Made by a program: the position numbers and the translations under genes | Notes under the pieces: generated by a model | What the model was told of the DNA's origin: nothing | Database searches by the model: none | Seen by the model: the letters and a program-made list of their open reading frames with translations, nothing else | Shown here: one piece after another, positions 5,189-52,703 of the stretch | Position numbering within the stretch: position 1 is the first letter of the stretch | Layout of the letters: the number at the start of each line of letters is the position of its first letter | Source: an uncultured Clostridium sp. | Lineage (GTDB): Bacteria; Bacillota; Clostridia; TANB77; CAG-508 | DNA: 64,000 nt | Assembly: GCA_902492105.1 (NCBI GenBank) | Contig: CABUKD010000002.1 | Location: 9,155 to 73,154, forward strand | Direction of reading: 5' to 3'

Positions 5189-5375
5189 TAGGGACGTTCC
5201 TTGTTGGCTGATTTTCAGCCAGAAGGGACACTCCTTGTCGGGCTAACTTATAGTCATAAGAAACATCATGATTTGCTAACTTTCAAACAGAAGAAGCAGT
5301 ATTGTTAAATCATTTTCAACTGAAGAGGACTGTCCCCAGTGGCTGATTTTCAACCAAAAAGGAACGTCCCTAATG
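5181..5375. repeat. Nested palindromic GGGACGTTCC / GGCTGA-TTT-TCAGCC repeat cluster (BIME- or MITE-like)
   Basis: 5188-5220 (ttagggacgttccttgttggctgattttcagcc) matches the reverse complement of 5341-5373 at 28 of 33 positions. A second degenerate unit lies inside each arm. The cluster ends overlap the permease start codon and the xth stop codon. Confidence 0.7.
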
Positions 5376-6137
5376 GTCGATTTCTAATCCAATAGGGCAA
5401 TGGTCACTTCCCAGAATATTCGAATAGATAATACTTGCTCTTATATTTTTTTCTATTGATTTTGATACAATAAAGTAGTCAATTCTCCAACCTACATTTT
5501 TTTCTCTTGCATGAAACATATAGGACCACCAAGTATAGGCATTTTCTTGATTTGGATATAGATAACGGAAGGAGTCTGTAAATCCTTCTGATAATAATTG
5601 TGTCATTTTTTCTCTTTCTTCGTCTGTAAAGCCTGCACTATGATGATTTGTTTTTGGATTTTTTAAGTCAATTTCTTCATGGGCCACATTAAAATCACCA
5701 CAATAAATAACTGGTTTTACGGTATCTAATTGTTTTAAATATTGTCTAATTTCGTCTTCCCATATCATGCGATAGGATAAACGTTCTAGTTCTCTTTTAG
5801 AGTTTGGTGTATAACAATTTACTAAGTAAAAAGTTTCAAATTCTAGAGTGATAATTCTTCCTTCTTGGTCATGCTCTTCTTTGCCAATTCCATAGGTAAC
5901 ATTTAATGGTTTTTGTTTTGTAAATACTGCTGTTCCAGAATATCCTTTTCTGATAGCACTATTCCAATAAGAATGATAGTTTTGAAACAGATTTTGTATA
6001 GATATATCGATTTGGTCTTCTTGCATTTTTGTTTCTTGAATACAAAAGATGTCAGCATCCGCTTGTTTAAAAAAATCACTAAATCCTTTTTGCATAGCTG
6101 CTCTTAATCCATTTACATTCCATGAAATTAATTTCAT
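5370..6137 (-). CDS. xth: Exodeoxyribonuclease III (AP endonuclease)
   Basis: MKLISWNVNGLRA...FCIQETK...GDFNVAH...WRIDYF...GSDHCPI are the canonical ExoIII/EEP family motifs. Confidence 0.92.
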   Translation of the reverse strand: MKLISWNVNGLRAAMQKGFSDFFKQADADIFCIQETKMQEDQIDISIQNLFQNYHSYWNSAIRKGYSGTAVFTKQKPLNVTYGIGKEEHDQEGRIITLEFETFYLVNCYTPNSKRELERLSYRMIWEDEIRQYLKQLDTVKPVIYCGDFNVAHEEIDLKNPKTNHHSAGFTDEEREKMTQLLSEGFTDSFRYLYPNQENAYTWWSYMFHAREKNVGWRIDYFIVSKSIEKNIRASIIYSNILGSDHCPIGLEIDH

Positions 6138-6202
6138 TTTTATTCTCCTATTTTTTTATTTTCGTATTCTATCATAACACATTATGTTGATTTTTTCAAG
6201 CA

Positions 6203-6340
6203 AGGAGTGTCCCTTTTGGTAAATTTTCAGCCACTAGGGACGTTCTTTTTTGGTTGAATTTCAGCCATTAAGGAACGTCCCTAGTGGTCGAAAATCGACC
6301 AAAAAGGAACGTCCCCAATGGCTGATTGAGGACGTTTCTT
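6203..6340. repeat. Array of about four ~33-nt units (GGRACGTYCC palindrome plus 6-bp-stem hairpin) in mixed orientation
   Basis: The units are ggagtgtccc..ggtaaattttcagcc, tagggacgttc..tggttgaatttcagcc, aaggaacgtccc..tggtcgaaaatcgacc and aaggaacgtcccc..tggctgattgagg. The array lies between the hydrolase stop and the xth start. Confidence 0.7.
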
Positions 6341-13665: not shown

Positions 13666-15831
13666 CTAGGTACCTAATGTGTATGGATCATCTGATGTTC
13701 CACTTCCCCCTGTTACTTTGATTCCAGTTTTTAGTGTAAATATTGGACGAATGCCATAAGTAGCACTAATTGAACTAATACCACCTGCTTTCACAGTGCA
13801 CAAGTCGCTAGCATTGCTTATACTGCCACTACCGCTTGCATATATTATACCAAAATAGCAACCATATGAGCTTGCATCTATAGTACGCGATGCTACCCAG
13901 TAAGTATCACCTATACCATATATTCCTAGTGCTCTCATTTGATTCCAATCTATTTGATGTTTATTATCTGCATTTTTAAACTTTCCGTTATAATTTTTCA
14001 TAAAACTTTCACTACTTGTAAACATTCCGGCTCCATCATAATTTGGATCATTTGGAACACTTCCTACACTTCTTACCTTATCTGCATAAGTTGTATTTAT
14101 ATATTTAGTTCCTGCATTATTTAGTATCGTTATTGCATTATTATATGAATTCATTGCTGTATTAAAATCACTACTTCCTAAAGTTACATCTCCTAACGTT
14201 TCCATTGTAATTATTTGTATTCCATAACTTGAATAATTTGCATTTTCTGGTCCATATAATACTACACATTTTATTGTTTGACCTGTTCCATCCTCATAAT
14301 ATACATATTTTCCTTCCTTTAATACTTCATTTATACTTGGAAGCGCAGGATTTACTGTTACACTACATGTTGCTTGCATGTTGCTTCCGTCATTTGCTTT
14401 TACTGTTATTGTTGTTGTTCCTTCTGTTTTGGCTGTTACTAAGCCTGTATTACTTACTGTTGCAATATTATTATTGTTACTACTCCAAGTTACTGATTTA
14501 TTATTTGCATTATTTGGTGTTATTGTTACGCTTAATTGTTTTGTTTGTCCTTCTTCTAATATCACACTAGTTGGACTTACTGTTATTCCTGTTACTAATT
14601 GTGTTACGCTTATTCCTTGTGATATGCTTTCTATTTTATTTCCTGCTTTGTCTACTGTTAATACATGTAAATAGTAAGTTCCTGGCGTACTTGCATTTAA
14701 TGTAATTGGCTGATCATTGCTAAATGCATTGGTATAACTACTTTCTTCTGTTCCTATTGGATTTTGGTTCATGTTATATATCCATTTACATTTTGTAAGT
14801 TCTACTCCACTTTCATTATCTGTATGAGTTACTGTAGCTGTTATACTTCCTGTTGTTGTAACACTTGTTCCACTTAATTCTATTTTTGCTTGTTGCGGTT
14901 TTTGGTTATCTAAAATATTTATACTTGTATACTCTGTTATATTTGTTCCATCACTTAATACCGCATATACCACATCTCCATATTTCAAGCCTGTTATTCC
15001 CTGTGTATCATCATAAGGAAGGTATGTTCCCTCTATATTATTTATTTGATATAAAATATTTACATTTTGCACTTGTGTTTCTAAATGGATAGTTGCTGTT
15101 CTATTATTCCATTGTGTTTCTCCTTTTTGAGTAATAATTCCTTTTAATTCTCCTATTAGCACTTCTGTTACTTTTTCTGTTGTTCCATTTTCGTTGGTTG
15201 CTTCCACTTTTATTTCATATGTTGTTTTATCTGTTAGTCCTGTTATACTTACTGTTAAGTCTGTTGTGTCTCCTTTTACTAGTTGATAGTTTTCGCTTGG
15301 TTCATCTTTTTGTTTATAATAATAGCTTAATGTCCCTCCATTTAATCTACTTACACTTACTTGTAATTCTACGCTATTTGTTGTTTGGCTTATTACTGTT
15401 ATTTCTTTAATATATGGTAATAAATTATCTTCTTTTCCTATGTAGTCTACCTCTACATCATCATATTCATTGATATGAATGTGAAATTTATATCCTTCTG
15501 GTACAGTAATGATATAATTTCCATTATCATCCATTTTTTCTACATCTTTATCTTTGTTTTCTATAATTCCTGCATTTTGCATATCTTGCCATAGATCATC
15601 TACTGTTACTGTATCATCTAATTGCCTCTTTAATGACCAATTGATTCCTACAATTCCTATTCTATCTTTGTAGCTTGCTATCAGTTGCTCTTCTTTAGAT
15701 TGTTTTGCTAAGTCTATAATTCCACCATCTCCAATGGCAGTTTGAATAGTTATTCCTGCTAAAATTAGCAAAATTACAATAGTTACTACTAGTGCAATTA
15801 GTGTAATTCCCTTTTCTTGTATTTTTTTCAT
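13666..15831 (-). CDS. Surface protein with prepilin-like N-terminus (no Glu+5), FN3-like and Big_2 domains, and a WxASR...GxRPxFTLK C-terminal module
   Basis: MKKIQEKG|ITLIALVVTIVILLILAGITI resembles a class III signal, but position +5 is Ala. The Big_2 segment is VTGITVSPTSVILEEGQTKQL...TITVKANDGS. The RBS GGGGG lies 8 nt upstream. It is a paralog of 16278..18473. Confidence 0.85.
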   Translation of the reverse strand: MKKIQEKGITLIALVVTIVILLILAGITIQTAIGDGGIIDLAKQSKEEQLIASYKDRIGIVGINWSLKRQLDDTVTVDDLWQDMQNAGIIENKDKDVEKMDDNGNYIITVPEGYKFHIHINEYDDVEVDYIGKEDNLLPYIKEITVISQTTNSVELQVSVSRLNGGTLSYYYKQKDEPSENYQLVKGDTTDLTVSITGLTDKTTYEIKVEATNENGTTEKVTEVLIGELKGIITQKGETQWNNRTATIHLETQVQNVNILYQINNIEGTYLPYDDTQGITGLKYGDVVYAVLSDGTNITEYTSINILDNQKPQQAKIELSGTSVTTTGSITATVTHTDNESGVELTKCKWIYNMNQNPIGTEESSYTNAFSNDQPITLNASTPGTYYLHVLTVDKAGNKIESISQGISVTQLVTGITVSPTSVILEEGQTKQLSVTITPNNANNKSVTWSSNNNNIATVSNTGLVTAKTEGTTTITVKANDGSNMQATCSVTVNPALPSINEVLKEGKYVYYEDGTGQTIKCVVLYGPENANYSSYGIQIITMETLGDVTLGSSDFNTAMNSYNNAITILNNAGTKYINTTYADKVRSVGSVPNDPNYDGAGMFTSSESFMKNYNGKFKNADNKHQIDWNQMRALGIYGIGDTYWVASRTIDASSYGCYFGIIYASGSGSISNASDLCTVKAGGISSISATYGIRPIFTLKTGIKVTGGSGTSDDPYTLGT

Positions 15832-15954
15832 TTCTTGTTCCCCCTAAGCTTTAGTTATTTTTAGCATTTTTCTATTTTTTATTCTTTTGATTAGTTGATT
15901 TATAAATTTTCGTTTGTATTTTTTATTTCATTATACTATTCTTTTATTTCTATG

Positions 15955-16196
15955 TAAAGAAAAAAGAAGATGAATTATGTATTTTTCCTACATAACCCAT
16001 CTTTTAAATTCTGATATTTTATATATAATTTTGGTACAACAAATAAAACTAAATATTCTTCAGTTGTTGGTTTAAAAGTTAACTCTCTCTCTCTCTCTCT
16101 CTTACTGTTTCAATACCTTCAAGCATTTTTGTTTTTTCTCCTTCGCTCTTTTCTTTTTTCTACCTCCATTATACCAATATGCATTTTATTTTTCAA
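15955..16196 (-). promoter_or_regulatory. Leader module copy 1: sigmaA promoter, leader ORF with (AG)10, intrinsic terminator
   Basis: The promoter reads, on the minus strand, TTGAAA (16196-16191), N17, TGgTATAAT (-10 at 16173-16168). The RBS GGAG (16141-16138) precedes ATG 16126-16124. The terminator pairs 16003-15989 with 15981-15967 and is followed by CUUUUUUCUUU. Positions 7 and 8 of the stem are G-U pairs only in the minus-strand RNA. Confidence 0.7.
16083..16102. repeat. (CT)10 / (AG)10 dinucleotide microsatellite
   Basis: Counted directly: 10 CT units between gttaa and tactg. Confidence 0.97.
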
Positions 16197-16277
16197 GTAA
16201 TTTTTTATGTTCCTTATGCTGATTAAAAACCTATATTACTTATGAAAATTTAATATATTCTCCCAATATATTGTTAA

Positions 16278-18473
16278 CTATATTCCCAATGTGTATGGAT
16301 CATCTGATGTTCCACTTCCCCCTGTTACTTTGATTCCAGGTTTTAGTGTAAAAACAGGTCTTAGCCCATGAGTAAAGCTATTTGAGCTAAAAGTTCCCGT
16401 ATCATAGATATAACATAAATTTTCATTTGTTAAATTACCAGTAGTACCCATATAGTATATATCAAAATAAACATCTTCCTTGTGTGAAGTTACATGACGA
16501 GAAGCTAACCAATAATTCTGATCGGAAGCTGCTATTCCTAATTTTGTCATCTGTTCGCGATCTGTTAAGTAGTTATTATCTCCTTTTAAAAATGAACCAC
16601 TATATTTTTGTGAAAATGATATATATTGGTATTCAGTAGCTTGGGAATTTTTATTATTTGGTACACTTCCGACACTCCTTACATCATTTGCATAAGTTGT
16701 ATTTAAGTATGTTTCTGCTTTTTTATTTAGTATATAAATTATTGCGGTATTATATGAATTCATTGCTGTATTAAAATAAGTTTCATCTTTATATTGATCA
16801 CTGCCTGTTCCATTTCCCAACTCTACATCTTCAACTGTATCTTTTGTAATAATTTGCACTCCATAACTTGAATAATTTGAATTTTCTGGTCCATATAATA
16901 CAATACATTTTCTAGTTACTCCTGTTCCGTCTACATATTGCACATAGTTTCCTTCTTTTAAAGTATTTTCTACTAAGAGTGGTTTTTTTATAGTTACTGT
17001 ACATGTTGCTTGCATGTTGCTTCCATCATTTGCTTTTACTGTTATTGTTGCTGTTCCTTCTGTTTTGGCCGTTACTAAGCCTGTACTACTTACTGTGGCT
17101 ATATTTGTATTATTACTACTCCAACTTACTGCTTTGTTACTTGCATTGTCTGGTGTTATGCTTGCTGTTAATTGCTGTGTTTGTCCTTCTTCTAAAGTTA
17201 AACTTGTTGGACTTACTGTTATTCCCGTTACTAATTGTGTTACTGTTACCCCTTGTGATATACTTTCTAATTTATTTCCTACTTTATCTGCTGTTAATAC
17301 ATGTAAATAATAGGTTCCTACTGTACTTGCACTTAATGTTATTTTTTCTCCATCACTACTAAAACTATTTGTATAATTACTTGCTTCTGTTCCTATTGGG
17401 TTTGAATTTGTGTTATATTCCCATTTACAATTTCCAATATCTACTCCAGTTTCATTATCTATATGCGTTACCGTTGCTATGATACTTCCTGTTGTATTCG
17501 TAGTATTTCCACTTAATTCTATTTGTGCATTTTGTGGATTTATTTGGTCTAAAATATCAATACTAGTATATCCACTTTGATTGATTCCATCTGTTATTAG
17601 TGCATATACAGTTTGACCATGATTTAGTCCTGTAATTGGTCCTTTATAATCTAGCCATTGTCCTTCTGTTCCTCCTACTTGATATTGAATAGTTACTCCT
17701 GTTTCTGTTGTTTCTAATTCTATTGTTGCTGTTCCATTACTCCATACTGTTTCTCCTTTTTGGTTAACTGCTCCTGTTAATTCACCTGTTGTTACATTGA
17801 TTACTTTTTCAGCTGTTCCGTTTTCATCTTCTACTACTACTTTTATATTATACACTTTTTGTTGTTCTAAGCCTGTAAAATCTGCTGTTAAGTCTTTTAC
17901 TCCTTCTTTGGATGCTACATAACTACTATCTGGTTCTCCATCTTTTTTATAATAATAGCTTAAACTTACTTCTCCTTCTGATCTTGTAATTTCTACTTCT
18001 ATATGAATACTATTACTTCCACTAGTTGAAGTAATTTCTCCTATTTTTGGTGGCAAACTATCTCCTTTTACCACATCTCCTATACTAACATTTCCATCTG
18101 GACTCACAATAATTTCTACAATATATCCTTCATTTGTTGTTAATTCGTATCTATCATTTTCTCCATCTTTTTCTGGTCCTGCTACATCTTCATCTGGATT
18201 ATCGATTATATCTGCATCTACCATTTTGTCCCATAAATCATCTACTGTTACAGTTGGATCTACTGCTCTTCCTATACTCCAATCTGCTATTACATTATTG
18301 ATTCTATCTTTCAATGCCCCTATTTCATGTTCTATTTTTGCTTGATTTGCTATGTCAAAAATGCCTCCATTGCTAAATAGTAGATTGATGGTTATTCCTG
18401 CTAATATGAGTAATACTACTATAGTTACTACTAGTGCTATTAAAGTGATACCTTTCTCATTTTTTTCTTTCAT
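16278..18473 (-). CDS. Surface protein with prepilin-like N-terminus, FN3-like and Big_2 domains (paralog of 13666..15831)
   Basis: The N-terminus is MKEKNEKG|ITLIALVVTIVVLLILAGITI. The Big_2 segment is VTGITVSPTSLTLEEGQTQQL... The C-terminus LRPVFTLKPGIKVTGGSGTSDDPYTLG is almost identical to its paralog's. Confidence 0.85.
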   Translation of the reverse strand: MKEKNEKGITLIALVVTIVVLLILAGITINLLFSNGGIFDIANQAKIEHEIGALKDRINNVIADWSIGRAVDPTVTVDDLWDKMVDADIIDNPDEDVAGPEKDGENDRYELTTNEGYIVEIIVSPDGNVSIGDVVKGDSLPPKIGEITSTSGSNSIHIEVEITRSEGEVSLSYYYKKDGEPDSSYVASKEGVKDLTADFTGLEQQKVYNIKVVVEDENGTAEKVINVTTGELTGAVNQKGETVWSNGTATIELETTETGVTIQYQVGGTEGQWLDYKGPITGLNHGQTVYALITDGINQSGYTSIDILDQINPQNAQIELSGNTTNTTGSIIATVTHIDNETGVDIGNCKWEYNTNSNPIGTEASNYTNSFSSDGEKITLSASTVGTYYLHVLTADKVGNKLESISQGVTVTQLVTGITVSPTSLTLEEGQTQQLTASITPDNASNKAVSWSSNNTNIATVSSTGLVTAKTEGTATITVKANDGSNMQATCTVTIKKPLLVENTLKEGNYVQYVDGTGVTRKCIVLYGPENSNYSSYGVQIITKDTVEDVELGNGTGSDQYKDETYFNTAMNSYNTAIIYILNKKAETYLNTTYANDVRSVGSVPNNKNSQATEYQYISFSQKYSGSFLKGDNNYLTDREQMTKLGIAASDQNYWLASRHVTSHKEDVYFDIYYMGTTGNLTNENLCYIYDTGTFSSNSFTHGLRPVFTLKPGIKVTGGSGTSDDPYTLGI

Positions 18474-18547: not shown

Positions 18548-18699
18548 AATTGCTAAGATATATTTTCGCATTTTTCATAATTGAGGACCATTTGTTTAAT
18601 AGATATTTTGATTTTTGTATTCGTTTTAAAGAAAGTGTGTTGTTATTCACAAGCCTATGGGACGAGCTTATGAAAAAAAGAAAATATATCTTAGCAATT
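18548..18699 (-). repeat. Family-1 hairpin-bounded element, copy B (inverted relative to A and C; inserted in the leader of 16278..18473)
   Basis: A 20-bp perfect terminal inverted repeat pairs aattgctaagatatattttc (18548-18567) with gaaaatatatcttagcaatt (18680-18699). The interior contains the reverse complements of TCGTCCCATAGGCTTGTGAAT and ACAAATGGTCCTCAA. The paralogous leader of 13666..15831 lacks this element. Confidence 0.75.
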
Positions 18700-18749
18700 A
18701 GGTTATTAAAGCATTTTTATTTCATTATACTATTCTTTTATTTCTATGT

Positions 18750-18982
18750 AAAAAAAAAAGAAGATGAATTATGTATTTTTTACATAACTCATCTTTTATG
18801 TTTTTATTCTTAATATATAATTTTGGTACAACAAATAAAACTAAAATTTTTTTAGTTGTTGGTTTAAATGTTAACTCTCTCTCTCTCTCTCTCTCTTAGT
18901 GTTTCAATGTTTTTCAATTTTATCCTCTTTTCTTTTACTTTTTTACTATTTTTAGTATAATATAACTTTATTTTATTTGCAA
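18750..18982 (-). promoter_or_regulatory. Leader module copy 2: promoter, (AG)11, intrinsic terminator
   Basis: On the minus strand the promoter is TTGCAA (18982-18977), N17, TATACT (18959-18954). The terminator arms are 18795-18781 and 18775-18761, followed by a run of nine U residues. The leader ORF here has only a TTG start (18917-18915). Confidence 0.65.
18875..18896. repeat. (CT)11 / (AG)11 microsatellite
   Basis: Counted directly: 11 CT units between gttaa and tagtg. Confidence 0.97.
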
Positions 18983-19080
18983 TAGTTTTACTATTTTTTC
19001 CTTATTATAATTAATATGACATTTAGTGTCAATACAAAATTATGACAATCTATGACATAATTTTAGTGGTGATAATATAT

Positions 19081-19290
19081 ATGATAAGTGAGAAAAGAAA
19101 GCAACTAGGTTATACACAAGAAAAAATGGCTTTATTGCTGAATATTAGCTTAAGGCAATATGTTAGAATAGATAAAGAAATTTGTTTTCCACGAGTCGAT
19201 ATATTAGAAAAGTTAATTCATACATTAAGTTTAATCAATGAAGAAATAGGACAATATGTTCATGAATTTATACAAAAAAAGTCAGGCTAG
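19081..19290 (+). CDS. Small XRE-family helix-turn-helix protein
   Basis: SEKRKQLGYTQEKMALLLNISLRQYVRIDKE is a typical HTH_3 motif. The track start is 19042, but the internal Met at 19081 gives the usual N-terminal spacing. The 3' end overlaps the spoIIE stop convergently. Confidence 0.65.
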   Translation: MISEKRKQLGYTQEKMALLLNISLRQYVRIDKEICFPRVDILEKLIHTLSLINEEIGQYVHEFIQKKSG

Positions 19291-23016: not shown

Positions 23017-26000
23017 CTACTTCTTTTTCATAACCTTTTTCTTAATAACCACAATTCCAGCAACAAGAAGTATTCCTACTAAAATTCCAATTCCATAATA
23101 TAAGTATGCTTGTCCAAATGGTGGTAATATCACTACCTTTTCTGCTCTACTACTATCTACTTCTGTTGGAGTTTTGGTTGGATCTTGATTTCCTACTACA
23201 GAATATGCCATTCTTCTTCCTGCAGTATTAGAAGTTTGTACAATTTCGGCAATATTTTCATAGGTTTTATCATCTTGGCTGTCGCTAGTAGTAATTAATT
23301 GTGTAAGGATTAATTGTTTGCTTACTTTTTCTCCTGGTTTTAAACTATTAGATAATTGTTCTGTTTGTAAAATAGTATTATAAGAACCAATTTGTTCTGT
23401 TAAACTATTATTTACTAATCTGTCATTAATATGTGCATTATCATTATTGGTTAAGTCATTTGTATTAACTACTTTCCATCCTTCATTGTCCGTTTCTCTA
23501 TATTGTAAATTATTTGCTACATAGTCTAATACTAAGTTTGCAGTTGTAGTTACTTTACTTTCTTCAGATGCACCTGTTGCTTTGTAGTAGAAGTCTTTGC
23601 CTGTATAATCTGTTTCGCCAGCATTGGTTACTGTTAATTCATATGTAATTTGAATCGTTGCACCATGCATTAGTTCTACATCTAGTATTGGTTGGATTAA
23701 TCCGTTTTGCCCACCTTGGTATAAACTTGCAATTAATTTATCAATTTCGGTTCTGTATGAATAACGGTTGTAGTTTACATCTTCCTTACTTTCCTCATAA
23801 TATGCTTCATATTGATCTTTGTCCATTTTACTACTTAAGTCATAAGGCTTGCCAGATACCCAAATTAAGTTTGGAACTGACTTACTTGCATCAAATGCAA
23901 TGTTTCCATTAGCTAAAGTGATTTTTACATTACTTACTTTTTTGTCTAAAGTAAGCTGTGCTTTTGGTCTTTCGGTAAGTCCAAAGTCTACACAATTTAA
24001 TGTATAATTTCCATTTTTGTCATTATTGTATAAGTATTTATCTGTTCCATTACTTTGGCTATTTAAACCATCTGTATTGGTTCTGTTATATTCTCCTTCT
24101 ATTACAATAATAGCAGTTTGCGCAGTCATATGTGTATTTTGCATTAATTCTTGTACCAAGCTATTATCAATAGAAGCCATATATGGTGATGCTAAAACTT
24201 CTGCTTTATGGTTATTTACATTAGAAGTACTATAAGCATTTACATTGGTTCTACCTTGATATGTTTCGTTTTGGTAGTTAGTTTTACTATTCTGTGTTCT
24301 TCCAGTATTGATGGTTTGATTTTCCCATAAATCTTTTGCATCTGATAAGTCTGTTTTTCCATTTGCGCTTAGTTCGTCTGCTTTTTGAATATTGTAATAT
24401 TCATCTGTATAGTTTGCAATAGATTGGTTATTTTTTAGGTCTTGTTGATATACAGTTGATTTAAAGTCTTGACCATTGTAGGATACTGCATTTTTGCCAC
24501 CATTGTTAGCAGTTAAAACGGTTTCTTGGTTATTTCCATATTGAAATCTTACCACATAGTTACCTGGTATAAAGTCACTAAATTCATAATATCCCTTTTC
24601 ATTTGTCGTCGTTGTTTGCCATACATATTCTTTACCATCTTTCATGATCTCTACTAGTTCTACAGTAACTCCTGCAATTCCAATTTCGTCTTTTTGTCTA
24701 ATACCATCTCCTAAAACGGATTTGCTTATAGATTGTGTTCTTTCATCTTCCCAAGCAGTACCATTTATTTTACGAATAGCACTTTGCTCTAAGTATACTT
24801 TAATGCTTTTTGCTCTATCAGTATCATCTTCAAAGTTCTTTTCGTATTTTTCACCTTCTAAATCATCTAAGCTTAAGTTTCCTGGTGTTGAGTTATTATC
24901 GATAATTCCTGCAGGTGTTTTATTATTTTTGATTGTTTGTTTATTTGGAAGTTTTTCTCCTTCTGCATAATAGTTTTCGTAGCCATTAATTTCTGCATAA
25001 TTTTCTTTTAAACTTTGGTCGTTATCTATAATAACTGGTCCTTGATTATCTGAATTTACTTTAAATGTTAAGTAAATATAAGCATTTTCTCCTGTTGCTA
25101 GTTTTTTACCATCTAATCCACGAACATAAACTGAGTTTAGTTCTTCTTCTATATCTTGTTTAGAATCTTCTCCATAAATACTATCTCCACAGTAGTTTCC
25201 ATTTCTGTCTTCACTAATTCCATAACTACTGTTAATGTTTCTAGCATAGGCAATTTGGCTTAAATCTAAGTTATGTATCATATTATAGTAGGCTTCATCT
25301 GTAATTGCTACTTTTTCGTTGCCATCTCTATTACTATCTTTATACATTACCCAAGATAAGTCTGGCATATAGGTATAATCTTTATCATAGTAGTCTACTA
25401 CTTCTGTAATTTCATTTAGAATATTTTGTGAAGAGTTTCTAATGGTAATTTTATAAGTTACATATAATTCTAAATTACTTCCATAAAGGTTGGTATCTTC
25501 TGCTCTATATTCATAATCTGCTGGGTATAATTCTCTATTATAGTTTGTTCCATAATAGTTGTAGTAGTCTTGCATTCTGATTTGAATTTCCCAATATTTA
25601 TCATCTTCTGAACGTTTATCATATTCATATACTTCTGTTTTTCCATTAATTTTGGTTGCTGCACGATAAATATCTTTTCTTAAAGATAAATTATTTTCTT
25701 GTCTTCTCCATAAGCCGGCATTTACATAGTATTGACCATCATAAATTGGTGGTTTTGTACCTACTCCTGGAATTACCATTTTTTTATTGCCAATTACAAA
25801 GTCATCATATACAGGGTATAGGTCTATTTCTCCATCTTCAAAAGGAGAACCAGTATAAGCTTGCATTTTACAATCTTCTATAAATTGTAGTTTTTTCCAA
25901 AGTTCTTCTTTTTGCTTTGCTGTTCTTGCAAAATCATTTACAATATCTTCATAGATGTCAAGCATTGCTCTTTCATCTGGATATTCTAAATAGCGATCCA

Positions 26001-28206
26001 TATATCTTTGGATTTTTTTACTAATTTCGCCTTCTTGAATTTTGTCTGTTTCTACAATGTTGCCTTTTCTGTCGATTTTGTAAAATCCATCTATTAGTTG
26101 TACATCAGTCTGTTCATATTCTCCATCTTCGTTTAGGGTAAATCCCATTAAATCATTAATAGAAAATGTTTCATTATAGTAGTTTCTACCATCTTTTAAT
26201 AACTCTCCGCTTCTTAAAGAATTGCTAGAAATATAGTTTTTTGGTGCTGAACCAATTTCTTCAAATTGTTCATTATATTCTTCCCTTGTCATTTCTAGTT
26301 TTGTATCATTTTCCCCACCATCTTGTAATTCAGTTACTTTAGAGGTAGCTTCCCAAATTTCGGTATTATATAGTTTGGCATTATATACCATGTCTGTTAC
26401 AGAATCTTGGTGTACTAGGTTTCCATTCTTTTTTTGGTCAGTTACTAAATATTCTGTTGGTAAATAAATTTGGCCATTATATTCAAATGTGACATAATAT
26501 TTGCTTTCAGAATTTAATCCATCAAATTCATAATATCCATTTTCGTCTGTTAAGGTTGGGTTCATTCTATAAGCAATTTCTCTATCTGTTAAACTTTCTT
26601 TATCTGCTTCAGATAATAGGTCTGCTACATAACTTACTAATTTGCCATTTCTATATTGTAAATTTCCATTTTCATCTAATGGACATTCATATAAAGTAAC
26701 TTTTACATTTGGAAGTACTCTATCATTTGCCTCTCCATTATATAAATCAGAGTGAATACCATCTGCTATATTTTGTTTGGTATCTTTTACATCTTCCCAT
26801 ACATAACCACCTAAATTCATGGTGATATCTAATTTTTGGTCTCCTCCACCAGTTAAATTAATAGTTAGTTTGTATAGGTTTCTTTCTCCCCAAGCATCCA
26901 TCATAAATTGTTGTGGTACAGGATATTCTGTTACTTTCCAACGATAGTTTACGCTACAAGAAGTTAAATCTCCGTCTTTGTTATAACTATCGTGGTGTCC
27001 TGTTTCAATTGGTGTTGCTACTAATTGGTGTCCTTCTAATTCACAAGCAATAGCATAAGTAGTCATATAGGAATACTCTACACTAATGTCTATATATCTT
27101 ACTGCATCATTGCTGTCTAATACTCCTTGGTTTGGATTTTCTATTTTTAAGTAAAATTCTTGTCCACTTACTGGGTAAGATTGCTCTGTTCTATCTACAT
27201 ATCCTTCTTCTTCTAATGGTGTAAAAAAGTCTAATTTCTTTTCTTCTCCATTTTGGATATAGCTTATAATGTTAGCATCTTTAATATATTGCGTTTTATC
27301 TTTATCATTGTAACCTTTTACTGTCATGTTAGAAATTCCTGCAAATTTAGCAGTAGCAGAATTTCCTTCTACATAATCCATTTTATATGGTCCAATAATT
27401 AAGTATTGTTCTTCTTGATTTACATTGATTTGTACCTTTTCTGTTGTGGTTTCTTTAATTGGATTATCTACATTATTTTTTAGTTCTTCTTCATAATCTC
27501 TATAATCCATAGATTCTTCTTTTAATTGTTCTGCCATATCTAGATAAGTAAATTTTGCTCCACTTGCTTCAAAAGATTCTCCTCTATTTACTTCCATATT
27601 AAGCCAAATAGCTACTTGTTTTACTTCTTGGCTAATGTTTTCTCCCTTTTTAAAATAAGTAGTAGATTTTCCATATACATAGCTTCCATCTGTTGGTGCA
27701 ATAAAGTTATTTGGTGCAGTTACTGTATAAGCACCTGATGGTACTAGTTCTGTGTGATTATTGACACAAATATAATAGGTATTGGAATAACGTTTTGCAG
27801 GTAAGGAAGCTTTGTGAGAACCTGAACTTACACTACCTGTTGTTCCATCTAGTGCTTTAATAGTAGCTACTAGATTTTCGTTCATTTCTACTGATACTCC
27901 TTTTTGGATACAGTAAAGCTGAATATCTCCAATGGAAGGACAAAATACTTTATTTACTTGGCTTGGTAATGCTTCATAATAGAAACTTCCATTTTGATAA
28001 AAAGCTGGGCTATCGTGAGCACCTTGTGTAACTAGAGTTCCATCTGCTACAGAGCCATTTACTGCTAAAGCTTCTTTAGTAAGTTTTGCAACTTGTTGTA
28101 TTGGGCTTTCTTCATATTTTATCAAAGAAGAAATAGTAACAACTAATGCGACAAATAAAAGTATAAGACCCAATACGAAAAGTGTAATTTTTCTTTTACC
28201 TTTCAT
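23017..28206 (-). CDS. Giant surface adhesin, module 1 gene B: N-terminal anchor/signal, thioester-domain signature, SdrD-B/Cna-B-like and isopeptide-type domains, C-terminal sorting-like signal
   Basis: LYCIQKG (Cys99, nt 27910-27912) and VKQVAIW (Gln197, nt 27616-27618) match the YCxE/TQxA(I/V)W thioester pattern. GGYVWEDVKD...TDENGYYEFDGL and GTAWEDERT...NEKGYYEFSDFIPGNYVVRF are SdrD-B-like. The C-terminus is VVILPPFG, then a hydrophobic helix, then KKKVMKKK. Confidence 0.85.
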   Translation of the reverse strand: MKGKRKITLFVLGLILLFVALVVTISSLIKYEESPIQQVAKLTKEALAVNGSVADGTLVTQGAHDSPAFYQNGSFYYEALPSQVNKVFCPSIGDIQLYCIQKGVSVEMNENLVATIKALDGTTGSVSSGSHKASLPAKRYSNTYYICVNNHTELVPSGAYTVTAPNNFIAPTDGSYVYGKSTTYFKKGENISQEVKQVAIWLNMEVNRGESFEASGAKFTYLDMAEQLKEESMDYRDYEEELKNNVDNPIKETTTEKVQINVNQEEQYLIIGPYKMDYVEGNSATAKFAGISNMTVKGYNDKDKTQYIKDANIISYIQNGEEKKLDFFTPLEEEGYVDRTEQSYPVSGQEFYLKIENPNQGVLDSNDAVRYIDISVEYSYMTTYAIACELEGHQLVATPIETGHHDSYNKDGDLTSCSVNYRWKVTEYPVPQQFMMDAWGERNLYKLTINLTGGGDQKLDITMNLGGYVWEDVKDTKQNIADGIHSDLYNGEANDRVLPNVKVTLYECPLDENGNLQYRNGKLVSYVADLLSEADKESLTDREIAYRMNPTLTDENGYYEFDGLNSESKYYVTFEYNGQIYLPTEYLVTDQKKNGNLVHQDSVTDMVYNAKLYNTEIWEATSKVTELQDGGENDTKLEMTREEYNEQFEEIGSAPKNYISSNSLRSGELLKDGRNYYNETFSINDLMGFTLNEDGEYEQTDVQLIDGFYKIDRKGNIVETDKIQEGEISKKIQRYMDRYLEYPDERAMLDIYEDIVNDFARTAKQKEELWKKLQFIEDCKMQAYTGSPFEDGEIDLYPVYDDFVIGNKKMVIPGVGTKPPIYDGQYYVNAGLWRRQENNLSLRKDIYRAATKINGKTEVYEYDKRSEDDKYWEIQIRMQDYYNYYGTNYNRELYPADYEYRAEDTNLYGSNLELYVTYKITIRNSSQNILNEITEVVDYYDKDYTYMPDLSWVMYKDSNRDGNEKVAITDEAYYNMIHNLDLSQIAYARNINSSYGISEDRNGNYCGDSIYGEDSKQDIEEELNSVYVRGLDGKKLATGENAYIYLTFKVNSDNQGPVIIDNDQSLKENYAEINGYENYYAEGEKLPNKQTIKNNKTPAGIIDNNSTPGNLSLDDLEGEKYEKNFEDDTDRAKSIKVYLEQSAIRKINGTAWEDERTQSISKSVLGDGIRQKDEIGIAGVTVELVEIMKDGKEYVWQTTTTNEKGYYEFSDFIPGNYVVRFQYGNNQETVLTANNGGKNAVSYNGQDFKSTVYQQDLKNNQSIANYTDEYYNIQKADELSANGKTDLSDAKDLWENQTINTGRTQNSKTNYQNETYQGRTNVNAYSTSNVNNHKAEVLASPYMASIDNSLVQELMQNTHMTAQTAIIVIEGEYNRTNTDGLNSQSNGTDKYLYNNDKNGNYTLNCVDFGLTERPKAQLTLDKKVSNVKITLANGNIAFDASKSVPNLIWVSGKPYDLSSKMDKDQYEAYYEESKEDVNYNRYSYRTEIDKLIASLYQGGQNGLIQPILDVELMHGATIQITYELTVTNAGETDYTGKDFYYKATGASEESKVTTTANLVLDYVANNLQYRETDNEGWKVVNTNDLTNNDNAHINDRLVNNSLTEQIGSYNTILQTEQLSNSLKPGEKVSKQLILTQLITTSDSQDDKTYENIAEIVQTSNTAGRRMAYSVVGNQDPTKTPTEVDSSRAEKVVILPPFGQAYLYYGIGILVGILLVAGIVVIKKKVMKKK

Positions 28207-28242
28207 TTTTAATCATATTCCTTTCTTAAGGTTCAATCTTGA

Positions 28243-28272
28243 TTGAAAAAGAATTTTGTAATTCTTTTTCAA
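28243..28272 (-). promoter_or_regulatory. Intercistronic stem-loop between module 1 genes A and B
   Basis: A 12-bp perfect stem pairs ttgaaaaagaat (28243-28254) with attctttttcaa (28261-28272). No U tract follows on the minus strand. The equivalent junction of module 2 (42194-42215) has no hairpin. Confidence 0.45.
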
Positions 28273-28287
28273 CCTCTCCCTCTCCTT

Positions 28288-33643: not shown

Positions 33644-33740
33644 GAAAGTTTACCACTGACCGATATGTGGTATATAAATGGTCGGGTTGAAAGTTTTCCG
33701 CTGACCAATATGCGGTATATAAATGGTTGGGTTGAAAGTG
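33644..33740 (+). ncRNA. Type III antitoxin RNA: 2 tandem 45-nt repeats plus a 7-nt partial third (ToxI/CptI-like)
   Basis: Repeat 1 (33644-33688) and repeat 2 (33689-33733) are identical at 40 of 45 positions. The changes at positions 12 and 25 are compensatory (ccAc...gTgg versus ccGc...gCgg). The repeats lie directly upstream of a terminator and a ToxN/AbiQ-like ORF. Confidence 0.8.
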
Positions 33741-36186: not shown

Positions 36187-36381
36187 TTGCTTATTCCTCA
36201 CTTTCTCCACTTTTATTACAAATTTATTAAATAGACAAAAATTTTCTATCTAATATAAAATATCATTTTTCGACAAAATTCACTAGAGTATTTTACAAAA
36301 AATGCTTTTTTTATTATAAACTATTTTTGTTAAATTTTTATATCGTTTTTTTATAGTTTTCTAAATTTAAATTTTTATTTT

Positions 36382-36540
36382 ATAGCTTTCCAGTATATAT
36401 TTTCTTTTTTTCATTGGTTCGTCCCATAGGCTTGTGAATTACAGCACACTTTCTCTTGTATAAATTTCAATGTTCTGACTATGTACTAAACAAATGGTCC
36501 TCAACAACTCAAAATGCGAAAATATATACCGGAAAGCTAT
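36382..36540 (+). repeat. Family-1 hairpin-bounded element, copy A
   Basis: The terminal stem pairs atagctttccagtatatattttc (36382-36404) with gaaaatatataccggaaagctat (36518-36540) with 1 mismatch. The interior has TCGTCCCATAGGCTTGTGAAT, CACACTTTCT and ACAAATGGTCCTCAA. The inner helix P2 is disrupted in this copy. Confidence 0.7.
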
Positions 36541-42193: not shown

Positions 42194-42215
42194 CTGTTAT
42201 TTGCCCTCCTTTCTT

Positions 42216-47640: not shown

Positions 47641-47793
47641 CGGTAGAATACTATATTTTCTTTTTTGCATTGGTTCGTCCCATAGGCTTGTGAATTACGA
47701 CACACTTTCTTTTATATAAAATAGTAAGTTCTAAATGTGTACTGGACAAATGGTCCTCAACAATGCAAAATGCAAAAATATAGTATTCTACCG
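47641..47793 (+). repeat. Family-1 hairpin-bounded element, copy C
   Basis: A 19-bp perfect terminal stem pairs cggtagaatactatatttt (47641-47659) with aaaatatagtattctaccg (47775-47793). The 10-bp inner helix is ttttgcattg / caatgcaaaa. The conserved interior blocks are the same as in copies A and B. TTTTT follows on the plus strand. Confidence 0.75.
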
Positions 47794-49027: not shown

Positions 49028-50413
49028 CTATAAATTACTTGGTTTAGGTGTTGTTGTATTTGTACCACAATTTTCAAACATATAATTTGTGTTTTCTACA
49101 TTTGTTAAATCCCAATTATCTCCTACATAAATAGTAGTTAAATTTGTACAACTAGCAAACATAGCCTCCATTTCTTGCATACTACTTGTATCCAAACTAC
49201 TCAAATCCAAATTTGTTAAGCTAGAACAACTCAAGAACATCCAACCCGTACTTATAACATTACTTGTATCAAAACCGCTTAAATCTAAATTTGTTAGATT
49301 TGTGCAACCATTGAACATATGTTGCATATCTGTTGTTTTACTTGTATCAAAATTGCTTAAATCTAAGCTTGTTAAACCACTACAATTTTGAAACATAAAA
49401 TACATAACTACAACATTACTTGTATCAAAACCACTTAAATTCAAACTTGTTAAGCTAGAACAATTTGCAAACATAGCTGCCATATTTTCAACATTATTTG
49501 TATTAAAACTACTTAAATTCAAACTTGTTAAATTTGTGCAACTATTAAATATATTTTGCATATCTACAACATTGCTTGTATCAAAACCACTTAAATTCAA
49601 ACTTGTTAAGCTACTACAAGCATAAAACATTGATGCCATATCTTCTACTTTACCTGTATTAAAGTTTTCTAAGCCTAAAATCTCAGTTAAATTACCACAA
49701 TGTGCAAACATTGCTGCCATGTTTGTTACATTACTTGTATTAAAACTACTTAGGTCTAAAGTTGCTAAACTGCTACATGTATCAAACATACTCAACATGC
49801 TTTTAACTTCACTTGTATCTATCTTCTCAATATTTTCAAATTCAGTTAAGTTTATGCAACTGTCAAACCAACTAGACATTGATATTGGGACTATTTCATC
49901 TACTATACTTGCTTTTGTTATTAGTGATGCTTCGTTAAACCATGGGGTATCACTCATTCTGTTGTTAGCTGCATTTTCGTCTGTCCAACTCTTATATTCT
50001 TGTCCTTTTATATTTCCATACTGTTTTACTATTGTTTTTCCTTCTATAGGTTCACTTTGTGTTCCAAATGTTAATGTTCCATCATCATATAAAAATACAT
50101 ATATATCGGTTGCTCTTGAATTCTTTCCTAATTCTTCATTTAATTCATTTAATAAACTATTTAAACTTTCTTGTTCATTTGCTACTGCATTTTCCCATGT
50201 GTTTTTTGCTTCTTGGGCTGTTCTGATAATTCCATTTTCTCCTAATAACATATTAATTGTAATACCTGCTAAAATAAGTAGTATAATAATTGTTACTACT
50301 AGTGCTATTAATGTAATTCCTTTTTCTGCATATTTTTTTAAATTATTTTTTTCTTTTTTGCATAGCACAGTTCCTTGCTTTCCATTTTTTACTTTTTCTT
50401 GTGTTCCTTGCAT
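49028..50413 (-). CDS. Prepilin-like N-terminus fused to DUF285/BspA-type leucine-rich repeats
   Basis: The N-terminus ...KKYAEKG|ITLIALVVTIIILLILAGITINMLLGENGII has a 31-aa leader and Ala at +5. About 10 repeats follow the pattern L(D/N)LS.F(D/N)TSNV..M..MF..C..LT. The RBS is AGGAGGA. Confidence 0.85.
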   Translation of the reverse strand: MQGTQEKVKNGKQGTVLCKKEKNNLKKYAEKGITLIALVVTIIILLILAGITINMLLGENGIIRTAQEAKNTWENAVANEQESLNSLLNELNEELGKNSRATDIYVFLYDDGTLTFGTQSEPIEGKTIVKQYGNIKGQEYKSWTDENAANNRMSDTPWFNEASLITKASIVDEIVPISMSSWFDSCINLTEFENIEKIDTSEVKSMLSMFDTCSSLATLDLSSFNTSNVTNMAAMFAHCGNLTEILGLENFNTGKVEDMASMFYACSSLTSLNLSGFDTSNVVDMQNIFNSCTNLTSLNLSSFNTNNVENMAAMFANCSSLTSLNLSGFDTSNVVVMYFMFQNCSGLTSLDLSNFDTSKTTDMQHMFNGCTNLTNLDLSGFDTSNVISTGWMFLSCSSLTNLDLSSLDTSSMQEMEAMFASCTNLTTIYVGDNWDLTNVENTNYMFENCGTNTTTPKPSNL

Positions 50414-50624
50414 TCTTTATTCCTCCTACTTACTTCTTTATATAATTTTAATATTTAAACTAATAAAAATTGCAGTATTACCTTTATTTTTTCCATCTTT
50501 TTACTTTTTATTCTTATTCTATTAGTTTTGTATTCTTTTCTTTATTTATGTTCCTTGTTAATTGCTTTATTATTTAAAAGTTTGTTCTTAGTTTATTTCA
50601 TTATACTATTCTTTTATTTCTATG

Positions 50625-50867
50625 TAAAGAAAAAGAAGATGAATTATGTATTTTTTACATAATCCATCTTTTAAATTTTCATACTTGATATATAATCTGG
50701 GTACAACAAATAAAACTAAATTTACTTTAGTTGTTGGCTTAAATTGTAACTCTCTCTCTCTCTCTCTCTCTTACTATTTCAGTACTTTCAAGCATTTTAG
50801 CTATTTCTCCTTCGCTTTTTCTTCTTTTTTCTGTTCACATTATACCAATATCTCTTTTACTTTGCAA
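50625..50867 (-). promoter_or_regulatory. Leader module copy 3: promoter, leader ORF with (AG)11, intrinsic terminator
   Basis: On the minus strand the promoter is TTGCAA (50867-50862), N17, TATAAT (50844-50839). GGAG (50810-50807) lies 11 nt before ATG 50795-50793. The terminator arms are 50670-50656 and 50650-50636, followed by CUUUUUCUUU. Confidence 0.7.
50750..50771. repeat. (CT)11 / (AG)11 microsatellite
   Basis: Counted directly: 11 CT units between ttgtaa and tactat. Confidence 0.97.
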
Positions 50868-51078: not shown

Positions 51079-52371
51079 TCAATTACTTGGTTTAGGTGTT
51101 GTTGTATTTACACCACAATTTGCAAACATATTACTTGTATTTTCTACATTCGTTAAGTCCCAATTATCTCCTACATAAATTACAGTTAAATTTTCACAAC
51201 CTGCAAATATATGATTCATATCTGACACCCTACTCGTATCAAAAGTACTTACGTCTAGACTTGTTAAAGTTCTACAATTAAAAAACATATCTCCCATATT
51301 TGTAACTTTGCTTGTATTAAAACTACTTAGGTTTAAATTTTGCAAATTATTACATTCATAAAACATTGCTCTCATATCTGTAACGTTGCTTGTATCAAAT
51401 TTTTCTAGACCAGTAATTTCTGTTAAATTAATACAGTGGTCAAACATTCCATTCATACTTTTCACACTGCTTGTATCAAAATTACTTAAATCTAAATTTG
51501 TTAAACTAATACCAGCAAACATTGCTTTCATACTTTCTACATTACTTGTGTTAAAATTATTGAGATTTAGATTAGTTAAACTACCACAATTAGCAAACAT
51601 TATTTCCATATCTATTACATTACTTGTATCAAATTTTTCTAGACCAATAATCTCTATCAAGTTATCACAGTGGTTAAACATCCCATTCATATTTGTCACA
51701 TTACTTGTATCAAAACTACTTAAGTCTAAAGTTGCTAAACTACTACATGTATCGAACATCCCGCTCATACTTTTCACTTCACTTGTATCTATCTTCTCAA
51801 TATTTTCAAATTCAGTTAAGTTTATGCAACTATCAAACCAACTAGACATTGATGTTGGTACTATTTCATCTATTATACTTACTTTAGTTATTAGTGATGT
51901 TTCGTTAAACCATGGAGTATCACTCACTATATTGTTATCTTCATCTGCCCAACTCTTATATTCCTGTCCTTTTATATTTCCATATTCTTTTACTACTGTT
52001 TTTCCTTCTATTGGTTCACTTGCATTGCTAAATGCTAATGTTCCATCATCATATAAGTAAACATAGATATCTTTACTTTTATCTGTTAATATTTCATCTA
52101 ATTCGGCTATTAAACTGTTTAAATTCTCTTGGTCATTAATAATGGCATTCTCCCATGTGTTTTTTGCTTCTTGGGCTGTTCTGATAATTCCATTTTCTCC
52201 TAATAACATATTAATTGTAATACCTGCTAAAATAAGTAGTATTATAATTGTTACTACTAGTGCTATTAATGTAATTCCTTTTTCTGTATATTTTTTTGAA
52301 TTATTTTTTTCTTCTTTGCATAGCACAGTTCCTTGCTTTCCATTCTTTACTTTTTCTTGTGTTCCTTGCAT
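51079..52371 (-). CDS. Prepilin-like N-terminus fused to DUF285/BspA-type leucine-rich repeats (paralog of 49028..50413)
   Basis: The first ~130 aa and the last ~40 aa are nearly identical to the neighbouring paralog. The LRR units follow the same consensus. Confidence 0.85.
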   Translation of the reverse strand: MQGTQEKVKNGKQGTVLCKEEKNNSKKYTEKGITLIALVVTIIILLILAGITINMLLGENGIIRTAQEAKNTWENAIINDQENLNSLIAELDEILTDKSKDIYVYLYDDGTLAFSNASEPIEGKTVVKEYGNIKGQEYKSWADEDNNIVSDTPWFNETSLITKVSIIDEIVPTSMSSWFDSCINLTEFENIEKIDTSEVKSMSGMFDTCSSLATLDLSSFDTSNVTNMNGMFNHCDNLIEIIGLEKFDTSNVIDMEIMFANCGSLTNLNLNNFNTSNVESMKAMFAGISLTNLDLSNFDTSSVKSMNGMFDHCINLTEITGLEKFDTSNVTDMRAMFYECNNLQNLNLSSFNTSKVTNMGDMFFNCRTLTSLDVSTFDTSRVSDMNHIFAGCENLTVIYVGDNWDLTNVENTSNMFANCGVNTTTPKPSN

Positions 52372-52474
52372 TTTTTATTCCTCCTATTCGCTCTTTTATA
52401 TAATTTTAATATTTAAATTAATTCTTATTTTATTTCATTATCCTATTTTTTTATTTCTTCATAAACAAAAATTT

Positions 52475-52703
52475 AAGATGAATTATGTATTTTTTTACAT
52501 AACCCATCTTTTACATTTTGATATTTTATATATAATTTTGCTACAACAAATAAAACTAAATTTACTTTAGTTGTTGGTTTAAATTGTAACTCTCTCTCTC
52601 TCTCTCTCTCTTACTGTTTCAGGCATTTTGTGCATTATTCTACTTTCTCCTTTGCTTTTTTATTTTCTATATTCATTATAACAATATTTTTTTCAGTTTT
52701 CAA
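52475..52703 (-). promoter_or_regulatory. Leader module copy 4: promoter, leader ORF with (AG)11, hairpin
   Basis: On the minus strand the promoter is TTGAAA (52703-52698), N17, TATAAT (52680-52675). GGAG (52650-52647) lies 11 nt before ATG 52635-52633. The hairpin arms are 52510-52496 and 52489-52475. The U tract (AAAUUUUUG) is weaker than in the other copies. Confidence 0.65.
52590..52611. repeat. (CT)11 / (AG)11 microsatellite
   Basis: Counted directly: 11 CT units between ttgtaa and tactg. Confidence 0.97.

Follow-up and report, generated by a model that had tools for sequence, protein, structure and literature searches.

What is the purpose of a strong promoter if an intrinsic terminator follows it before the gene has begun? 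This question is raised by a stretch of 64,000 nucleotides (nt) from an uncultured Clostridium sp. (assembly GCA_902492105.1, contig CABUKD010000002.1; the whole stretch is referred to as the window), in which four copies of one leader module precede four genes for pilin-like surface proteins. A first-pass annotation had described promoter, (AG)n repeat and terminator of these leaders, and had concluded that they imply conditional antitermination, recognising no known class in the leader. We propose, at a probability of about 0.65, that the module is a phase-variable leader-peptide transcription attenuator driven by slipped-strand mispairing, in which the number of AG units modulo 3 serves as the switch.

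All features of the module were checked on the minus strand. The four homologous copies (c1 to c4) align over about 270 nt, from the upstream promoter (P1) to about 40 nt beyond the terminator, and the direct-repeat families D3 and D14 pick out the same four sites. The homology claimed by the first-pass annotation is thereby confirmed, as is the existence of a conserved block; the block, however, reaches about 40 nt past the low-coordinate boundary given there and takes in a second promoter (P2) that had been overlooked. The order of the parts is P1, an A-rich stretch, a Shine-Dalgarno (SD) sequence, a start codon, 7–10 variable codons, (AG)10 or (AG)11, a spacer of 78 nt, and a 15-bp hairpin with a U-rich tail (Table 1). 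P1 is a near-consensus sigma-A promoter in all four copies (TTGAAA or TTGCAA, 17 nt, TATAAT or TATACT), with a TG extended −10 element in three of them. The SD sequence is AAGGAG and the start codon ATG, except for c2 with GAGGA and TTG. Repeats of (AG)8 or longer occur in the window in the four modules only, while shuffled sequences lead to an expectation of 0. Hairpin and U tract lie between the promoter and the start codon of the gene in 4/4 copies, as stated before, at a distance from the ATG that we measured as about 104–288 nt instead of 125–280 nt.

The window is chromosomal DNA of a spore-former with approximately 28% G+C and carries spoIIE, minC, mreBCD and a gene for a penicillin-binding protein. 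Exactly four of its open reading frames (ORFs) possess the N-terminal segment GITLIALVV, more fully K/Q-G-ITLIALVVTI..LLILAGIT, and each of the four is preceded by the module, in agreement with the earlier claim. The label "pilin-like" for the corresponding proteins comes solely from matches below threshold: Pfam N_methyl yields 15.9–17.5 bits compared to a cutoff of 21.2, and the N-terminus of GspG matches with E = 0.025–0.1. In their motif G-ITLIA the residue at +5 is Ala, in place of the Glu found in the class III signal peptide of type IV pilins (G/FTLIE-type).

Table 1. Positions of the four leader modules, the genes behind them and a candidate invertible segment in the window.
Feature	Position	Strand	Details
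c1 module (P1 to P2)	15930..16196	-	From alignment; upstream of gene 13666-15831
c1 P1	16196..16168	-	TTGAAA-17-TATAAT, TG extended −10
c1 SD and mini-ORF	16079..16142	-	AGGAG 16142-16138; ATG 16126 to stop 16079: MLEGIETVRERERES, stop
c1 repeat	16083..16102	-	(AG)10, inside mini-ORF
c1 frame C after repeat	15975..16082	-	LTFKPTTEEYLVLFVVPKLYIKYQNLKDGLCRKNT, stop; ends within terminator hairpin
c1 hairpin H1	16047..16065	-	AACUGAA/UUUAGUU, then U-rich run (RNAalifold)
c1 intrinsic terminator	15967..16003	-	15-bp hairpin, then CUUUUUUCUUU
c1 P2	15930..15958	-	TTTACA-17-TATAAT, overlaps terminator tail
c2 module	18724..18982	-
c2 P1	18982..18954	-	TTGCAA-17-TATACT
c2 SD	18927-18923	-	GAGGA
c2 mini-ORF		-	TTG 18917, stop 18864
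c2 repeat	18896-18875	-	(AG)11
c2 hairpin H1	18857-18839	-
c2 terminator	18795-18761	-
c2 P2	18752-18724	-
c3 module	50600..50867	-
c3 P1	50867..50839	-	TTGCAA-17-TATAAT
c3 SD	50811-50807	-
c3 mini-ORF		-	ATG 50795, stop 50739
c3 repeat	50771-50750	-	(AG)11
c3 hairpin H1	50732-50714	-
c3 terminator	50670-50636	-
c3 P2	50628-50600	-
c4 module	52437..52703	-
c4 P1	52703..52675	-	TTGAAA-17-TATAAT
c4 SD	52651-52647	-
c4 mini-ORF		-	ATG 52635, stop 52579
c4 repeat	52611-52590	-	(AG)11
c4 hairpin H1	52572-52554	-
c4 terminator	52510-52475	-
c4 P2, degraded	52465-52437	-	TTTATG-17-GATAAT
Controlled gene 1	13666..15831	-	721 aa, Big_2/Fn3-like, pilin-like hydrophobic N-terminus
Controlled gene 2	16278..18473	-	731 aa, Big_2; N_methyl match under threshold
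Controlled gene 3	49028..50413	-	461 aa, DUF285/PARCEL-repeat surface protein
Controlled gene 4	51079..52371	-	430 aa, DUF285/PARCEL-repeat surface protein
Candidate invertible DNA switch	18548..18699	.	c2 5' untranslated region, between P2 and gene; 27-nt inverted repeats 18548-18574 and 18673-18699, inner segment of ~100 nt

The terminator is conserved as a structure. At stem positions 7–8 the copies carry GG, AG or GA opposite UU in the 3' arm, which leads to G-U or A-U pairs in the minus-strand RNA and to A-C mismatches in the opposite transcript; the first-pass annotation was correct in this respect. In 16 distinct homologous hairpins 98.7% of the cells pair, compared to about 40% in slid controls, and compensatory double changes occur in 17 cells at three pairs, the top three (GC/AU, CG/UA, AU/UA/CG). 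Judged by this covariation, the hairpin is a real RNA structure of the sense strand and terminator-like. As a strong promoter is followed by a conserved terminator within the leader, readthrough must be controlled, and this part of the earlier antitermination proposal stands. The role it assigned to (AG)n, namely that of an RNA element for an unknown factor, does not, since the repeat is located in a mini-ORF with SD sequence and start codon.

This mini-ORF is the key to our reading. To compare it beyond the window we included related copies of the module: a pattern scan of the GTDB species representatives led to 11 more copies in three gut metagenome-assembled genomes (MAGs), nine of them in a single MAG, and a scan of metagenomes led to seven further copies. 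The SD sequence and the in-frame start of the mini-ORF are kept in all copies examined. From start codon to repeat there are 21, 24, 27 or 30 nt across the window and related copies, always in frame, so that the repeat is always read as RERERE. The four window copies translate into MLEGIETVRERERES, LKNIETLRERERERVNI, MLESTEIVRERERERVTI and MHKMPETVRERERERVTI, each followed by a stop codon. In every copy 78 nt separate the repeat from the start of the terminator, with neither insertions nor deletions.

The frame that is entered after the repeat depends on the number n of AG units. If n is 10 or 13, translation meets a stop at +4 (ES, stop); if n is 8, 11, 14 or 17, the stop is at +11 (RVxI, stop). 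In c3 and c4 one of the short frames stops at +28 rather than +4. If n is divisible by 3, the start codon is joined to a third frame (frame C, ELTFKPTT..LVLFVV.KLYIKY.N.KDGLC..), which is open into or beyond the hairpin; n = 12 is found in L006, L011, L024, L025 and L030. The fused frame C stops at +105 to +150, that is within or just past the hairpin, and L010 with a frame-C stop at +72 is an exception. In nearly all copies frame C is open over at least 102 nt. Copies with n = 6, 9 or 12 contain a fused ORF of 47–62 amino acids (aa), and in samples with these repeat numbers the source annotators called the fused ORF of 47–51 aa a gene.

According to the proposed attenuator, the P1 transcript would open with a translated mini-ORF consisting of SD sequence, ATG or TTG, 7–10 variable codons and (AG)n as Arg-Glu repeats, and slipped-strand mispairing would add or remove 2 nt at a time. 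Two of the three possible frames would bring the ribosome to a stop 4 or 11 nt after the repeat (28 nt in one frame of c3 and c4), which is 50–75 nt short of the terminator. The hairpin could then form, the P1 transcript would end as an RNA of ~200 nt, and the gene would be off or expressed at a basal level from P2. In the third frame, with n divisible by 3, the ribosome would cover the 5' arm of the hairpin, no hairpin would form, and transcription from P1 would enter the gene (on or high). By analogy with pil1 and pil3 of Streptococcus gallolyticus (see below) we infer both that termination is suppressed as ribosomes translate the long frame and in which direction expression changes. In copies that possess P2, the four of the window among them, basal expression from P2 is expected to be low, and readthrough from P1 to bring expression to a high level.

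A switch of this kind calls for variation of n, and the repeat is indeed hypervariable in nature. For a within-species comparison the four window proteins were looked up by exact sequence, which led to contigs from many human-gut metagenomes, each contig being taken once for the AG counts. At c1 the counts are 6, 9, 10 (eight times), 11, 12 and 14; at c2 8 and 11 (three times); at c3 10 (twice), 11 (six times) and 14, with 17 in L008 from a related species; and at c4 5, 7 (four times), 10 (twice) and 11 (twice). The range over the four loci is 5–17. The intergenic region of c1, ~460 nt in length, is base-identical across samples except for the AG count and one T-to-A change beside the repeat (L015). 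L008, with n = 17, was considered as a same-species ortholog of c3 and rejected, as BLAST identity is about 84% and points to a related species; the within-species evidence therefore rests on the exact-protein look-ups. The consensus state is in the long frame in 3/36 cases (loci L012–L047, samples not independent), all of them at c1, which is well under one third. This is suggestive of the long-frame state usually being the minority in populations.

A further hint comes from copies with a decayed or shortened repeat. The repeat reads AGAGAGAGAAAG in L013 and L037, is interrupted by GGGAGGGAG in L023, and is reduced to (AG)3 in L033. All three independent copies are in frame C, for which the chance is about 0.04, and they may be read as "locked on". 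In L013 (1100-1500) and L037 (680-1200) the leader with the decayed repeat is chimeric and located after spoIIIAH; it precedes the c1 gene in the former and the c2 gene in the latter. It follows from these chimeras that recombination takes place at leaders and thereby rearranges or deletes surface genes. As a separate observation, the pilin-like gene behind the long-frame leader of L025 (2780-2900) is seemingly broken by a stop after an A-run (GGGAAAAAATAA), which is either a homopolymer sequencing error of the long-read assembly or a second slippage-prone tract.

The arrangement has a close counterpart in the pil1 and pil3 loci of S. gallolyticus, where GCAGA repeats in a leader-peptide gene shift its frame (Danne et al. 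2014, PMC3894217). With the short peptide, translation ends there 39 nt ahead of a premature terminator and pilus levels are low, whereas longer peptides end in or after the hairpin, so that ribosomes prevent its formation and transcription rises; mutants of start codon, stop codon and terminator confirmed the mechanism (PMC3894217). Both systems share a promoter, an SD sequence and ATG with a leader ORF containing a repeat unit that is not a multiple of 3, a terminator and a gene for a surface appendage. In both, tens of nt separate the short-frame stop from the hairpin (39 nt in S. gallolyticus, about 50–75 nt in the module), the longer frame has its end in the hairpin or shortly behind it, the repeat number differs between isolates or samples, and there is more than one locus per genome. 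They differ in the repeat (an AG dinucleotide with 5–17 units here, a GCAGA pentamer with 13–23 units there), in the host, which is here an uncultured spore-forming gut Clostridia lineage of ~28% G+C, and in the targets, here large Big_2 or DUF285/PARCEL proteins whose N-terminal helix is pilin-like, and not sortase pili. Particular to the present module are also a single long frame out of three, a highly conserved spacer of 78 nt that contains a small hairpin, the P2 that usually follows the terminator, at least nine copies per genome, and the stacking of one copy with a candidate invertible DNA switch.

As the sequence is unrelated to that of the streptococcal leader, and as repeat unit and host class are different, the two systems are analogous and not homologous. 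In a full-text literature search, switching by a repeat in a leader peptide combined with a terminator was described solely in one paper, for two loci of one Streptococcus species. Going by this comparison of sequence features and by the variation of n in populations, the module is a new, non-homologous, multi-copy version of a known but rarely documented mechanism, and not a riboswitch. The first-pass annotation had missed the mini-ORF with its SD sequence and start codon, the reading of the repeat as RERERE, the long frame into the terminator and P2, and was wrong on the principle of control and on novelty; the effect of the repeat on expression would be as outlined above. Its statement that the leader belongs to no known riboswitch or attenuator class holds for Rfam and fails for the logic of the module, already demonstrated for pil1/pil3 (PMC3894217). 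Across the whole window Rfam 15 gave 0 matches at the gathering score; with the limit relaxed to E ≤ 10, the sole match in 15800–16300 was a spurious miRNA (E = 8.3).

Other systems share single aspects with the module. In the cwpV-type control of Clostridioides difficile an invertible element in the 5' untranslated region forms a terminator in one orientation, and neither leader peptide nor repeat is involved. Common to both is the stochastic control of a Clostridia surface protein by a premature terminator between a constitutive promoter and the gene; there DNA inversion makes or destroys the terminator, whereas here it is always present and the frame of the mini-ORF varies. In classical attenuators (trp and his in enterics, ermK and bmrB in Bacillus) the supply of charged tRNA or an antibiotic sets the position of the ribosome, which acts via antiterminator hairpins. 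As in the module, the position of the ribosome on a leader ORF decides whether the terminator hairpin forms; here, however, it would be set genetically by the repeat number, and RNAalifold found no alternative hairpin. Outer-membrane protein genes of Helicobacter pylori carry CT/AG dinucleotide repeats in the 5' part of the coding sequence, and thus share the repeat unit and the slipped-strand frame switching of surface proteins. The repeat is located there in the structural gene and acts on translation, while here it is part of a separate mini-ORF before a terminator. Leaders with factor-dependent antitermination (RAT/BglG, ANTAR, TRAP or PyrR type) do not match the module, for which RNAalifold gave no alternative structure and in which (AG)n, at 5–17 units, is no fixed binding array.

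Several points weigh against the proposed attenuator. Most copies, including all four of the window, have a P2 after the terminator, and this promoter could drive the gene whatever the state of the leader. In Bacillus subtilis transcription and translation are reported to be loosely coupled. One specified frame is open over at least 102 nt in 2–3% of dinucleotide shuffles and any frame over at least 78 nt in about 20%, and a stop-avoidance test on the frame-C substitutions uses a single-change model that is confounded by multi-base codon changes. The spacer is conserved at the nucleotide level far beyond the need to stay open, possibly due to gene conversion, hairpin H1 or another factor. Finally, the rarity of "on" consensus states fits costly surface antigens but also other readings.

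P2 is the main weakness of the attenuator model. It is near-consensus (TTTACA-17-TATAAT) in c1, c2 and c3, where it overlaps the terminator tail and closes the conserved module, and degraded in c4; its variants keep the critical −10 positions. It is likewise the main support for a rival explanation, according to which P1, the frame-C ORF and the terminator make up a phase-variable gene of their own for a small protein of 47–62 aa, with the surface gene being independent and transcribed from P2. Six related elements (L001, L009, L025, L027, L031 and L033) argue against this: they lack P2 and run straight into the SD sequence of the gene, about 50 nt after the terminator. In L001 and L009, the two of them that were scanned, no promoter-like site was found from the terminator to the gene, leaving P1 as the sole one. 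It would also be unusual for a normal gene to have its ORF end in its own terminator stem, and one copy per surface gene would be odd for a product acting in trans.

If a small protein were the product, its sequence should bear the marks of coding constraint. K20, P21, L27, F30 and K34 are among the residues invariant across 33 peptide clusters, and some replacements look conservative, e.g. LVLFVV to LVIFVV or LVFFAV. The variable sites of the 78-nt spacer are, however, distributed 11/11/11 over the codon positions and thus possess no periodicity, and the ratio of nonsynonymous to synonymous variation (pN/pS) is 0.59 in frame C compared to 0.65 and 0.75 in the other frames, which is no contrast. 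In the most diverged copies read by eye, L023 and L024, nearly all changes alter the amino acid; in L024, the most diverged one, this is true for all of its about 10 changes from the consensus. The 33 clusters of fused frame-C ORFs in public protein data are all free of family annotation, Pfam and NCBIfam gave no family match for the frame-C peptide, and an AlphaFold2 model based on an alignment of the 33 sequences consists of two low-confidence helices (predicted local distance difference test score, pLDDT, of 68). As frame C has neither coding-type constraint nor a family nor a confident fold, the act of translation and not its product is the likely function, and the peptide itself is probably not the point of frame C. 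We consider the small-protein explanation unlikely on these grounds. The conservation of the spacer is in part due to the stops of frames A and B (AGY-TAA, TTT-AAR) being kept while frame C is open, and gene conversion between copies probably adds to it.

A second rival explanation is the model of the first-pass annotation, namely that a signal-responsive protein or ligand acting in trans binds the leader RNA, e.g. at (AG)n or H1, and suppresses the terminator. Little or no variation is seen in the blocks CCAACAACUAA, UUUAGUU, UUUGUUGUA and AAAUUAUAUA, which is suggestive of a ligand at the RNA or DNA level; AG repeats are known Hfq-binding sequences in Gram-positives, and such a regulation could coexist with the repeat switch. 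Yet there is no credible Rfam match even at E ≤ 10, and a fold of the leader by RNAalifold contains H1 and the terminator alone, with no conserved antiterminator pairing to the 5' arm of the terminator. A tract length of 5–17 between samples, together with the persistence of decayed tracts, would hardly be expected of a defined binding site, and the conserved SD sequence, the start codon and the strict frame relations are left unexplained. This makes the explanation quite improbable in our view.

H1 (consensus AACUAAA/UUUAGUU) is located at +18 to +36 after the repeat and is followed by a U-rich run. Support for it is weak because its changes are one-sided, A-to-G alone, and a function as pause signal is speculation. 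Two further pairings were considered and rejected: an outer stem CAACAA/UUGUUG around H1 is broken by the diverged copies L013, L023, L024 and L025 as often as it is compensated, and for a pairing of (AG)n with the CU-rich tail of the terminator, suggested by minimum free energy folds, copies with AAUUUUGUGU tails have no complement.

A third rival explanation sees in the module above all a cassette for recombination or gene conversion, i.e. a portable promoter block of paralogous surface genes with neutral repeat variation. It would agree with at least nine copies in one MAG, with chimeras that put the c1 or c2 gene behind another upstream gene (L013 and L037, after SpoIIIAH) and with leaders that are more alike than the coding regions behind them. 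We consider it very improbable, as it leaves the conserved SD sequence and start, the frame relations, the fixed spacing and the terminator covariation unexplained; moreover, all three decayed repeats are in the long frame, and consensus states are strongly biased away from n divisible by 3 (3/36), which speaks against neutrality.

If the attenuator reading is correct, the AG count modulo 3 would offer a readout of switched-on surface proteins that can be obtained from sequence alone and applied to existing metagenomes. It would also mark the pilin-like proteins with Big_2 domains or PARCEL repeats as antigens that are probably exposed to host or phage. An independent, non-homologous version of the streptococcal mechanism, used at least nine times in one uncultured human-gut Clostridia genome, suggests a recurrent solution and not a curiosity. 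One might go further and regard the module as a portable multi-copy phase-variation cassette (P1, mini-ORF with (AG)n, a pause-like hairpin, terminator and P2) that was spread by recombination before surface genes of gut Clostridia, sometimes stacked with an invertible switch, and whose nearly invariant spacer and nascent peptide possibly act in cis by an RNA polymerase pause or a ribosome arrest. We hold this extension as tentative and, taken as a whole, rather unlikely. If it were true, stacked switches would lead to combinatorial surface variation, and a spacer acting in cis could enforce occupancy of the terminator by the ribosome despite otherwise poor transcription-translation coupling.

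The stacking refers to c2 alone among the four copies, where the 5' untranslated region contains a candidate inversion-based switch between P2 and the gene (Table 1). In the homologous locus L011 (MAG HGM13671, 372-525) the inner segment appears as its reverse complement (97% identity), between flanks that are still co-linear. The segment may thus represent an inversion-based switch stacked on the repeat switch, with the two orientations coming from genomes of different species. Related segments flanked by inverted repeats are found in L003, L006 and L007. Nothing convincing in the way of a promoter or terminator was found inside the segment in either orientation, and no recombinase gene was seen among the window ORFs of at least 150 aa, most of which were scanned with Pfam.

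Divergent from c2 there is an ORF of 82 aa with an XRE-like helix-turn-helix (19042-19290, + strand), and a 12-nt palindrome pair is located at 19036-19064. A perfect promoter consensus, TTGACA-17-TATAAT at 19032..19004, is directed toward the module c2, whose own P1 is the weakest of the four.

The window also contains two tandem pairs of very large paralogous surface-protein genes (23017-33288 and 36719-47339; 1666–1824 aa) with an SdrD_B-like domain, and a YcaO gene (34375-36210) between the pairs. A repeat of 131 nt with 86% identity occurs upstream of the YcaO gene (36396-36526) and of the second pair (47652-47782), and a 45-nt tandem repeat is present in 2.1 copies at 33644-33739. Repeats of ~34 nt, both dispersed and in tandem (AGGAACGTCCC..GGCTGATTTTCA-type), are found at 5191-6327 on both sides of an Exo_endo_phos gene (5370-6137).

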